Shown one piece after another: positions 1 through 4,615 of a stretch of DNA of 6,181 bases; position 1 is the stretch's first letter; the number at the start of each line of letters is the position of its first letter. This DNA comes from Candidatus Odinarchaeia archaeon (GTDB taxonomy: Archaea; Asgardarchaeota; Odinarchaeia; Odinarchaeales; Odinarchaeaceae): NCBI GenBank assembly GCA_029856525.1, contig JAHQXC010000074.1, positions 1-6,181 of the forward strand. The letters are read 5' to 3'. The notes below the pieces were generated by a model, which did not search any database, had not been told where the DNA came from, and was given only the letters and a program-made list of their open reading frames with translations. Made by a program: the position numbers and the translations under genes.

Positions 1-39
1 TTTTTTAAACACCGCGCGGATATTTAAGTTTTTGCCCAT
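1..39 (-). CDS. Possible 5' end of a divergent gene running off the window (MGKNLNIRAVFKK...), product unknown
   Basis: The minus strand reads TTAGGGGGTGA-ATG, followed by 13 open codons to the window edge. There is an SD-like GGGGGTG at 47-41 and a TATA-like TTTATAAA at 89-82. Too short to verify. Confidence 0.35.
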   Translation of the reverse strand, partial: MGKNLNIRAVFKK

Positions 40-185
40 TCACCCCCTAACTGAAGTTAAGGGATTCTCTGGGCACCCTTTTTTATAAAATTTTAGCTGT
101 TATTTACAGTAGCGCTTAACATATAGAGTGATTTTTTAATTTATGTAGGAAATATTTATATTATCTTGGTTATTTTAAATATGCC

Positions 186-526: not shown

Positions 527-694
527 TCGGCTAGTAGTCCTCCTGCGAAAGCTGGGAAAGCCGACAGTATTTATAGTTTCCAATCTTCAAAAAGGATAAA
601 GATGAGGGGCTGAGACTGGGCCTTTACCGGTCGAAAATACCAGTAAACTCCATCATTGAAGCAGGAAGCCCCATCAGATAGGAGGGGTGTTCAC
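527..694 (+). mobile_element. Putative non-autonomous IS200/IS605-family remnant or orphan omega-RNA-like locus
   Basis: Ends in GAAGCAGGAAG-CCCC-ATCAGATAGGA-GGGG-TGTTCAC (658-694), matching the GAAG-hairpin-TTCAC pattern I recognise from tnpB right ends. It also has an internal hairpin at 623-647, a GAAA-capped hairpin at 527-564 and TTTATA at 570-575. No ORF is present, and the left boundary is uncertain. Confidence 0.55.
528..540. repeat. Pseudo-palindrome copy A, CGGCTAGTAGTCC
   Basis: Matches the consensus NGRCTANTAGTCC shared with 824-836 and 1187-1199. Confidence 0.55.
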
Positions 695-775
695 TAGAGC
701 CTGTTAATTACTAGAATATATTTCATGGAAAACCTTTTGTAAGATGCACGGAAGTCGAGGAAGCTTGCTAGGAAT

Positions 776-1199: not shown

Positions 1200-1244
1200 A
1201 CGTAATGGGTTAAGCTGTAATATGAAGGTTGTTTATTAAAAATA

Positions 1245-1250
1245 GGGGTG
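1245..1250 (+). promoter_or_regulatory. Shine-Dalgarno site of rpo2
   Basis: GGGGTG lies 5 nt before the ATG at 1256. Confidence 0.7.
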
Positions 1251-1255
1251 GAATA

Positions 1256-4200
1256 ATGGAGGTCTCCTCTAATAGTTTGTGGAAGCTTATGCTCGCTTTT
1301 TTCGATGAGAAAGGATTGGTTAGACAACATTTAGATTCGTATAATACATTTATAGAGAAAGATTTACAGGCTATAATCGACGAGCAGGGGATTATTGAAA
1401 CCGACATCGAAAACTTTTATGTTAAACTGGGTAGAATAGAGGTTGGTGAGCCTAGTATAACTGAAGCCGACGGCTCAACTAAAATGATAGATCCGACTGA
1501 AGCGCGCCTTCGCAATCTCACGTATGCTGCGCCTATGTTTCTTGAGTTAACCCCTGTTTGGAAGGTGCCTGGGACTGATATAGAGACTCAAGGGGAAACT
1601 GTGAAAGTCTATATTGGTAAAATGCCGATAATGCTCAAATCTAACCGCTGTGTTTTATCAAAAATTAAAGATGAAGCGCTTCTTGAAATAAACGAGGATC
1701 CTAGGGATCCTGGAGGCTACTTTATTATAAACGGTTCTGAGAGAGTTATCGTAACCCAAGAGGATTTAGCTCCAAACCGGATATTAATAGAGAAAAGCAG
1801 TCCGACAAGTCCTTCAACACATGTAGCTAAGGTTTTTTCAACCGCGAGAGGGTTTAGAGCGCCTGTTTTATTGGAGAGGGGTAGAGACGGCGCGTTTAAA
1901 CTATCTTTTCCATCTGTTCCAGGTAAAATTCCTTTAGCTATCATGTTAAGAGCGCTTGGTTTAGTGACAGATAAACAGATAATGGACGCGATATCTGATG
2001 ACCCTGAAGTGAGACGTGAGCTTATCCCCACATTAGAGGAAGCGGCTCCTATATATGTGCCGAAAGACCCTCAGCAAACAGTTAACAATGTACTAGACTA
2101 TATAGGGAAAAGAGTCGCCATCGGCCAGACGTTAGAGTATCGTTTGAAGAAAGCCGAGCAGGTTATCGATAAATATCTTCTACCACATCTAGGTGTGACT
2201 CCAAGTGATAGATTAAATAAAGCATATTACCTGTGTCAGATGGCTTTAAGAATAATAGAGCTTGTTTTAGGTAGAAGACCTGAAGATGATAAAGATCACT
2301 ATTCTAATAAGCGGCTTAAACTCGCCGGTGAACTTTTAGCAAGTCTTTTCAGAAACGCGTTTCTAAATTTAGTAAGAGATATAAAATATCAGCTTGAGCG
2401 TACAGCGGTTAGAGGCAGGAAGCCTAATATTCGAACAGCTGTTAGAGCTGACGTTATCACCGAGCGTTTAAAACATGCGTTGGCTACAGGTAACTGGGTT
2501 GGCGGTAAAGCAGGAGTCAGTCAGCTTTTAGATAGAACCAACTATATGTCATCTTTAAGCCATCTTCGTAGAATAGTCTCCCCGCTGAGTAGAAGTCAAC
2601 CCCACTATGAGGCTAGAGATTTACATCCAACTCACTGGGGTAGAATCTGCCCTAATGAGACGCCGGAGGGTCCTAATTGCGGTCTCGTTAAAAACTTAGC
2701 TTTAATGTGTCATATTTCAGTCGGTGTTGATGAAAAAGAAGTTGAAAGAATGCTATTTAATCTCGGTGTTTATAGTATACCTGAAAGAGCTAAGTGCGGT
2801 TCAAACCCTGTAAGTGTTTTTCTAAACGGAACGCTTATCGGTTACGTCTCTGATCCTGTTTGGTTTGTTAATGAAATTAGGCGTAAGAGAAGAAATAATG
2901 AAATAAGCGATGAAATAAATATCGCCTACTACCCTGATGTGAAAGAAATACAGGTTAACTGTGATGCTGGGAGGGCGCGTCGTCCACTTATCATAGTGGA
3001 GAACGGTGTAGCGGCTCTTAAACCAGAGCATTTAGAGAAACTTGAAAGAGGAGAGTGGTCTTTCACAGATTTTGTGAGAAATGGGATAATAGAATACCTT
3101 GATGCTGAAGAAGAGGAGAACGCTTTCATAGCTTTAACCCCTGAGAGCTTAACACCGGAGCATACTCATCTGGAAATCTCACCTAGCAGTATATTAGGTA
3201 TAACCGCGTCAACGATACCATTCGCGGAGCATAATCAATCTCCTAGAAACGTCTACCAATCCGGTATGTGTAAGCAAGCTTTAGGAGTGTACGCGGCAAA
3301 CTTTAAACATAGACTTGATACAAGAACCCATCTTCTCCATTATCCTCAAACTCCTATTGTTAAAACTAAAGTAATGGATGCAATAGGCTTCGATGAGCGC
3401 GCAGCCGGTCAAAACTTTATTGTAGCCGTTCTATCATATGAAGGATATAATATAGAAGACGCGCTTGTTATGAATAAATCTTCTATAGATAGAGGTCTCG
3501 GTCGAAGCAGTTTCTTCCGCTCTTATGAAGCTGAAGAGCGAAAGTACCCGGGCGGACAGGAGGATAAATTTGAGATACCTGACCGCGATGTGAGAGGATA
3601 CCGTGTTCCAGAATCTTACCGGCATCTCGGCGAAGACGGTTTAATATCTAGTGAAATCTACGTTGAAGGAGGGGATGTTTTAATCGGTAGAACTAGCCCC
3701 CCAAGATTTTTAGAGGAATACACTGAGCTAGGCGCTGCAACACAAGTTAGACGCGACACTTCTGTGAATATGAGACATGGGGAAAGCGGCATTGTAGATA
3801 CAGTTGTTTTAACCGAAACCGTTGACGGTAATAGACTGGTTAAAGTGAAGGTTAGAGATCTAAGAATCCCTGAGTTAGGTGATAAATTCGCTTCCAGACA
3901 CGGTCAGAAAGGTGTTTTAGGTTTGATTGTTCCTCGAGAAGATATGCCTTTCACCGATTCAGGTATCGTCCCAGATCTGATAATCAACCCTCACGCTATA
4001 CCATCCCGTATGACTTTAGGCCAAGTATTAGAGTCTATGGCTGGTAAAGCCGCTTCAGTTTCCGCTAGAAGAGTCGACGGATCGATTTTCACAGGGCTTT
4101 CAAATGAAGAAATATATAATATGTTAAAGGAAGCGGGTTTCCATTATACAGGTAGAGAAGTCATGTACGACGGTGTCAGCGGTGAGAAACTTGAAGCAGA

Positions 4201-4615
4201 TATATTCATAGGAGTAGTATACTATCAGAAACTCCACCATATGGTAGCTGATAAAATGCATGCTAGAGCTAGAGGACCTGTTCAAATACTCACCAGACAG
4301 CCGACTGAGGGTAGAGCGCGTGAAGGCGGTTTAAGATTCGGTGAAATGGAAAGGGACTGTCTGATCGGCCACGGCGCGGCGCTTTTACTTAAAGAAAGAT
4401 TGTTAGATGAATCTGATAAATATGTAGTCTACGTATGTGAAGGCTGCGGGGCTCTCGCAACTTATGATAGAAACAGGGATAGATATTATTGCCCGCTTTG
4501 CGGTGATACGACTACGATTTCCAGGGTCTCCATGTCGTATGCTTTTAAACTGTTAATACAGGAGATGATGGCTTTAGGAATATTTCCTAAAATAATATTA
4601 AAGGAAAAAGCTTAG
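1256..4615 (+). CDS. rpo2: DNA-directed RNA polymerase subunit Rpo2 (B), unsplit, 1119 aa
   Basis: Contains [60 protein letters not shown] and the C-terminal Zn ribbon CEGC..CPLC. The start is moved from TTG1229 to ATG1256 on SD evidence. No intein or frameshift seen. Confidence 0.99.

Follow-up and report, generated by a model that had tools for sequence, protein, structure and literature searches.

Omega-RNAs of the TnpBs of IS200/IS605 and IS607 elements, also termed reRNAs, are known from ISDra2 (PMC8612924) and SisTnpB1 (bioRxiv 10.1101/2023.03.06.531077). In Sulfolobus islandicus, tnpA-tnpB elements have 5'-TTTAA next to their left ends, and this motif is used as the TAM (bioRxiv 10.1101/2023.03.06.531077). 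RAGATH-18 (RF03064) is the source of the guide RNAs of IS607-type TnpBs (PMC11061315). Gene-less, palindrome-associated (PATE-like) elements of the IS200/IS605 type, noted for Geobacillus stearothermophilus, ‘often encode omega-RNAs’ that would need a TnpB in trans (Meers et al., PMC10055086). The archaeal DNA described here carries, at positions 517-694, a multi-copy insertion whose scaffold is homologous to tnpB right ends. It very probably represents a non-autonomous IS200/IS605-type mini-element (PATE- or MITE-like) with a promoter and an omega-RNA scaffold, most likely inactive at this site. A sequence-only reading of the same DNA, according to which an omega-RNA-like cassette here has a TATA box of its own and lacks a TnpB, was essentially right.

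The window, which is the whole stretch of 6,181 nucleotides analyzed, is the start of contig C5 of an archaeal genome (G000; 1.32 Mb, 127 contigs, 38.5% G+C) from a sediment metagenome assembly with a completeness of 93%. Two intron-bearing tRNA genes (232-332 and 342-474) lie upstream of the element, which sits in the tRNA-rpoH spacer of 295 bp. On the other side of this spacer are rpoH (858-1097, with its ATG at 858), rpoB in unsplit form (1229-4615) and the beginning of rpoA. Both tRNA genes have long inserts at unusual positions, one with about 32 nt in the T-arm region and the other with about 31 nt located 3' of the anticodon loop plus about 30 nt in the variable region; both are detected by the Rfam tRNA model and neither by ARAGORN. 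The element has the orientation of rpoH; from its right end it is 164 nt to the rpoH ATG and 88 nt to a conserved rpoH TATA box (783-788). No open reading frame of 40 or more amino acids was found to overlap 517-694.

All parts of the element lie on the plus strand. It begins with TTTAA (517-521), a putative target motif or TAM that equals the left-end motif of S. islandicus. The left-end module follows (522-563), with a TCGGC/GCCGA outer stem and an inner CCCC..GGGG hairpin; the module is conserved in all full copies of the element, and its inner hairpin is degenerate in the window copy. A BRE/TATA-like promoter at 564-577 consists of a purine-rich stretch and TTTATA (570-575), and transcription is predicted to start near 598-604. 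After a spacer of about 25 nt comes an omega-RNA-like scaffold (605-694) in a short, decayed variant. It contains a remnant of helix P1 (GCAGG only, 661-665), helices P2 (614-621/647-654), P3 (626-631/639-644) and P4 (669-676/681-687), and the tail TGTTCAC (688-694). The 3' flank at 695-714 would be the guide of a read-through transcript. The sequence-only reading had placed the cassette at 570-714: every motif it listed is found where it had been located, TTTATA included, and the TTCAC end it gave at 694 is exact, but the element begins some 50 bp further upstream, where the extension adds the TTTAA motif and the left-end module ahead of the TATA box.

The element belongs to a repeat family, here called family A, with approximately 19-22 copies of a gene-less unit of about 175 bp in this genome. 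A BLAST search of the flagged stretch against its own genome returned 21 matches, and an nhmmer profile of the aligned copies recovered about 22 full or near-full matches, plus fragments and variants. The copies are intergenic; 20 of the 21 do not overlap any open reading frame of at least 90 amino acids, and the remaining one overlaps a 92-amino-acid frame of the other strand. Pairwise identity averages 76%, and the range of 52-89% implies that no two copies are young. The family alignment comprises 17 full copies, in which TTTAA stands directly at the left end in 14, with a variable preceding base. Similarity sets in at TTTAA(C), positions 517-522 in the window, and stops right after TTCAC at 694; both flanks are unrelated between copies from the first base. 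The TTCAC proposed from the letters alone as the end of the cassette is therefore the exact family boundary. The structured block of the family is G+C-rich, 90-115 nt long, and closes with a terminal hairpin and the tail TAGTTCAC, which forms the family right end and reads TGTTCAC in the window.

Copy number, sharp ends and the left TTTAA motif, together with insertions missing from same-genus genomes, bear out the suggestion of a non-autonomous element. No target duplication was seen in the flanks of the copies. There are no terminal inverted repeats; the family has subterminal hairpins at both ends instead, and its consensus shows a CCCC..GGGG hairpin in the left as well as the right end. 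The copy search proposed earlier thus yields genome copies with differing 3' flanks, and tnpB-linked relatives in other genomes. Similarity among paralogous copies is by itself no proof of selection on either promoter or RNA. Several cassette variants (G000 C18:1814-2049, C91:3121-3362, C125:9360-9551 and C93:3500-3730) combine the same left-end module and a TAGTTCAC-type end with other interiors, and the left-end module occurs alone at several places in the genome (contigs C10, C3, C82, C84, C71 and C91).

Comparison with three genomes of the same genus (G001, G002 and G003) shows that the insertions are missing there. These genomes keep the tRNA and the rpoH promoter region, with a tRNA-rpoH spacer of only 46-88 bp against 295 bp in the window, and a sequence search gave no match to the element anywhere in them. 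At two further family A loci, C29:13021-13198 and C29:9022-9203, G001 and G002 lack about 176 bp while the flanking genes are conserved. The presence/absence difference to same-genus genomes extends over three family A loci and one locus of a second repeat family, family B. A covariance model of the scaffold (R1, described below) has no match in G002 and G003 and a single marginal match of 45 nt in G001. No base-precise empty site could be aligned at the window locus or at the two C29 loci since the adjoining spacers have diverged, and the exact cleavage points and the TAM of family A are accordingly putative.

The origin of the structured block is indicated by tnpB genes in other genomes. Short matches to the element ends in other genomes of the phylum lead to tnpB right ends. 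In G006, a genome of the same order, the stop codon of a gene for a 383-amino-acid TnpB falls within a right end almost matching the last 38 nt of the element (657-694 in the window). A TnpB search over 301 genomes of the phylum returned many loci, and the whole TnpB clade carries CCUG followed by UGAAGCAGGAAGC, a hairpin and UAGUUCAC at or right after the tnpB stop. Homologous tnpB 3' ends or right ends are found in G006, G005, G004, G014, G007, G018 and G032, and homologous right ends also on contigs of Hadesarchaea, Micrarchaeota, Aenigmatarchaeota and methanogens. Those of G007, G018 and G032 match the family HMM over approximately 90-140 positions (E 5e-13 to 1e-9), spanning the whole structured block. 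The C-terminal 32 amino acids of the G018 TnpB align to translated family A copies with 59% identity, which identifies the block as a relic of a tnpB 3' end. The similarity to tnpB right ends anticipated by the sequence-only reading, whose lack it had named as a point against itself, thus exists in homologous sequences and in the match of an independent covariance model to 605-694.

The right-end motif extends far beyond these archaea. GAAGCAGGAAnC, followed by a hairpin of 12-26 nt and TAGTTCAC, is present on no fewer than 119 bacterial and archaeal contigs (loci L097-L176 and further loci), including Lachnospiraceae, Aquificota, Hades-, Micr-, Aenigmat-, Bathy- and Asgard archaea and methanogens, and the hairpin sequence covaries widely across them. 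Sufficient upstream DNA was available for 38 motif matches in named genomes, and in 20 of these a tnpB on the same strand ends 11-190 nt before the end of the motif. The complete layout of left end, promoter and scaffold recurs as well. G018 has cassettes of about 205 bp in which the same left-end module and a TATA box are joined to the right end of its own tnpB, and the layout is also present on contigs of Aenigmatarchaeota, Bathyarchaeota and Methanothermococcus, the left-end module being shared by all of these. In G018, the left-end hairpin is nearly equal to the right-end hairpin. The TATA-like box lies about 25 nt ahead of the structured block in the G000 copies and variant cassettes and is likewise placed in the cassettes of G018, Aenigmatarchaeota and Methanothermococcus, despite differing spacer sequence. 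A cassette of this type in G018 lies just 3' of a tRNA gene (L053:38-109 and 133-337), like the window copy, which may be coincidence.

The fold of the single sequence is no better than chance, and the significance of the structure stems from comparison. The minimum free energy of 596-716 is -31.2 kcal/mol (z = -0.50), 57 of 200 shuffled sequences fold equally well, and z is 0.03 for the minus strand. For the 17 paralogous copies, RNAalifold returned only a weak consensus (-2.45 kcal/mol) and was abandoned; the paralogues are too similar and too decayed, so the structure was taken from tnpB-linked homologues. The structural alignment uses ten tnpB-linked right ends, all from other genomes: two genomes of the Asgard phylum, G032, Nitrososphaeria, Aenigmatarchaeota, Methanogenium, a Methanobacteriota MAG, two Micrarchaeota and Hadesarchaea. 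Four helices are supported, namely the long-range P1 (CCUGY with RCAGG), P2, the variable hairpin P3 and the terminal hairpin P4. Across this set 92.6% of cells are paired, a value inflated because the same and related sequences served to derive the structure, and both bases are changed in 17 of the 28 pairs. Even so, P2, P3 and P4 show numerous such double changes, which are independent of one another. Covariation scores 0.545; sliding the partners gives no more than 0.117, and none of 500 shuffles gets as high as 0.545. Once the G000 copies are included, pairing falls to 77.6% of cells, as expected for copies in decay, and both bases are changed in 11 pairs.

Two of the helices had been anticipated from the window alone. 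The hairpin of TTTACCGGT (623-631) and ACCAGTAAA (639-647), with 8 of 9 pairs, corresponds to P3, and CCCC (669-672) with GGGG (684-687) corresponds to P4; homologues show compensatory changes in both. The pairing proposed between GATG (601-604) and CATC (651-654) is not supported, as the GATG side varies (GACG, GCTG, GAAG, GATA) in an uncompensated manner. TGAA (657-660) and TTCA (690-693), proposed as a possible pair, are present within invariant sequence, which makes covariation uninformative.

R1 was built from the ten tnpB-linked right ends and includes no G000 sequence. Against the whole genome, it recovers family A with scores from 75.7 bits (the best copy, on contig C32) down to about 24 bits. 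It matches the window over its full length at 605-694 with 33.6 bits (E 7.7e-5 genome-wide, 3.6e-7 in the window). The end of this match coincides with position 694, the transposon boundary, beyond which lies variable flank. R1 also scores about 22 bits on right ends of family B. An Rfam search of the window found no family at threshold. RAGATH-18 gives full-length matches of 24.7-28.9 bits in the P1-P3 region of the tnpB-linked G032, G018 and G007 sequences, below the RF03064 gathering score of 44.9 bits, and has no match to the window or the other G000 copies even at E 10.

The window copy itself is most likely an inactive relic. It is of a short subtype from which the segment with the P1 5' strand has been deleted, while copies on contigs C11, C109, C24 and C32 retain CCUGCU paired with AGCAGG. 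P2 keeps five of eight pairs, P3 has one C-A mismatch, P4 contains mismatches, and cmsearch reports non-standard pairs in all four helices. The tail TAGTTCAC, otherwise invariant, has lost one nucleotide. By R1 score the copy ranks fifteenth in the family. The sequence-only reading had allowed for a decayed insertion scar, and the loss of conserved scaffold pairs agrees with that alternative.

The genome still encodes proteins of this transposon type. The only Y1 TnpA is at C44:8252-8602 (PF01797, E 1.1e-39) and adjoins a TnpB (C44:8559-9902, locus L033); a second, intact TnpB is at C93:26009-27289. Two full-length TnpBs are present, a point on which the sequence-only reading had made its interpretation depend. 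The left end of the C44 insertion sequence aligns to variant members of family A. The C44 tnpA-tnpB element was considered as the parent of family A and rejected, as its right end has no match although its left end aligns to variants. Directly before this tnpA, the segment C44:8001-8200 (L033) begins with TTTAAC, contains TATA boxes and a block resembling the scaffold, and may be a diverged family A cassette; it would be either the true left end of this insertion sequence or a neighboring mini-element. The C44 TnpB has a G at the position of the RuvC-II glutamate (KIVVGNL, against IVFENL, IAVEKL or IIVMENL in five other TnpBs) and keeps the other two catalytic positions, a pattern suggesting that it may be nuclease-dead.

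Neither protein belongs to the TnpB clade whose right ends match family A. In tblastn searches with four TnpBs of this cognate clade, the C93 and C44 genes were the only matches, at 24-28% identity to the queries over their long alignments. A G006-type TnpB query had no match in G000 at E 1e-20 or better, and no fragments of cognate-clade TnpBs were found there. Two right-end fragments lie at contig ends (C17:16995-17049 and C31:14810-14844); with these and an assembly 93% complete, a cognate tnpB could be unassembled, and its status in G000 is ‘not found’ rather than ‘absent’. The family consensus was also aligned to the 3' ends of tnpB genes on C93, C44 and C121, and the scores of 30-47 are not significant: shuffled controls average 27.7 and reach 45.

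Family B is a second gene-less repeat, of about 280 bp, made up of 105 bp of the left end and 173 bp of the right end of the tnpB insertion sequence at C93:25961-27305. It is absent from the relatives at C29:3820-4100. Its relation to family A is visible only as the 22-bit R1 matches. Window positions 2-88 (minus strand) are part of the left end of a family B mini-element, and the end of contig C71 overlaps the window start, which places the contig break inside the family B repeat. Logan contigs aligned with the window break inside the repeats.

From these parts, a life cycle can be proposed for family A. In this reading the element combines a subterminal stem-loop at its left end with an archaeal BRE/TATA promoter and, from a TnpB omega-RNA scaffold, the 3' 90-115 nt; the final base of the scaffold is the transposon right end. 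A Y1 TnpA acting in trans would peel the element out and paste it 3' of TTTAA. Transcription would start about 25 nt past the TATA box, at the scaffold, and read across the right end, giving an RNA whose 3' part would be a guide for the flanking DNA. A cognate TnpB with this RNA would cut the emptied site (TTTAA plus flank), and the element would be restored by recombination. The guides agree with such a cycle. For 16 copies, the 24 nt located 3' of the right end were searched against the genome; alignments of at least 20 nt are self matches only, and no other exact match is longer than 15 nt, a length expected by chance. The guide proposed earlier for the window copy likewise matched its own flank and no other target. 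This is the pattern of a transposon-end guide aimed at its own emptied site, unlike that of a domesticated regulator, and a TldR-like guide of a domesticated nuclease-dead TnpB was rejected since none of the 16 guides has a distant genomic target.

An unlikely alternative is that the window copy is an active stand-alone guide-RNA gene, whose RNA would load the C93 or C44 TnpB and would guard or regulate the RNA polymerase operon locus. The trans use of PATE-encoded omega-RNAs has been proposed (PMC10055086), the distance between promoter box and scaffold is kept in cassettes of several archaeal phyla, and the C44 TnpB has glycine at the RuvC-II position. The C93 tnpB right end, like that of family B, even shares the terminal hairpin and a TAGCTCAC tail, and scores 22.3 bits with R1. 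The distance of 24-28% identity between the resident TnpBs and the clade with matching right ends argues against this role, as do a score of 33.6 bits against 75.7 for the best copy, the missing P1 5' strand, the deletion in the invariant tail and a guide that matches its own flank only. It is quite improbable, too, that the cassettes as a class are cross-phylum archaeal mobile guide-RNA genes equipped with promoters, functional without a linked nuclease and used in trans. If they were, about 20 chromosomal sites, the neighbor of the RNA polymerase operon among them, would be guarded or regulated by RNA-guided binding, and the trans user would be a distantly related resident TnpB or possibly the C44 TnpB with its putatively dead RuvC site.

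Very improbable is the proposal that the element matters mainly as a mobile promoter, whose outward TATA box would alter or add to rpoH-rpoB-rpoA transcription while the RNA structure would be irrelevant. The box is co-oriented with rpoH and lies 288 nt upstream of its start codon, and for about 9 of the 21 copies an open reading frame on the same strand follows within 250 nt. Many copies, however, face the ends of convergent genes; at the window locus, rpoH has kept its own promoter, conserved in the three relatives without the insert, and a T-run (744-747) intervenes between element and rpoH. The promoter of the window copy may fire towards the rpoH-rpoB-rpoA operon; as an ordinary insertion near the rpoH promoter, the element would have at most a modest regulatory effect. 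That the copies are ordinary small RNA genes or chance hairpins with no relation to transposons has next to no probability: a promoter-like box precedes a structured block in each copy and the single-sequence fold is not above chance, but sharp ends, a conserved target motif, insertions missing from relatives and homology of the block to tnpB right ends, relic tnpB codons included, already contradict it.

The mini-element reading leaves a very small archaeal genome with about 20 remnants of an RNA-guided transposon system, the nuclease of which is no longer to be found there, in a layout that recurs on Asgard, Bathyarchaeota, Aenigmatarchaeota and Methanothermococcus contigs. It offers a naturally occurring case of a minimal TnpB guide-RNA unit with a separate promoter, and its best copies, such as C32:7312-7498, could serve as a guide when compact omega-RNA scaffolds are designed for archaeal TnpBs. 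R1 also annotates repeats that otherwise break assemblies and resemble unexplained small RNA genes.

Among known systems, family A shares several traits with TnpB reRNAs: in its homologues the scaffold overlaps the tnpB 3' end, stops at the right end and has the flank as guide, and TTTAA stands at the left boundary as in Sulfolobus. In contrast to these, the tnpB frame is gone from family A except for relic codons, the scaffold is only about 90 nt long, and the window copy lacks one strand of the long-range stem. RAGATH-18 matches the tnpB-linked relatives below threshold and has no match in the window. Family B is equally gene-less, multi-copy and missing from relatives, but is an internal-deletion derivative that keeps the last 51 tnpB codons and whose full-length tnpB parent is present, whereas family A differs in its left end, has a promoter module of its own and lacks a parent in the assembly. 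The PATE-like elements resemble family A in having no protein gene, subterminal hairpins at the left and right ends and many copies, with TnpA presumably acting in trans and a right-end scaffold that would need a TnpB encoded elsewhere. Unlike them, family A is archaeal, has a BRE/TATA box about 25 nt before the scaffold, shows its layout in several archaeal phyla, and has no cognate TnpB found in its genome. Elements of this kind are thus already known in bacteria; new are the archaeal lineage, the built-in BRE/TATA box and the cross-phylum layout.
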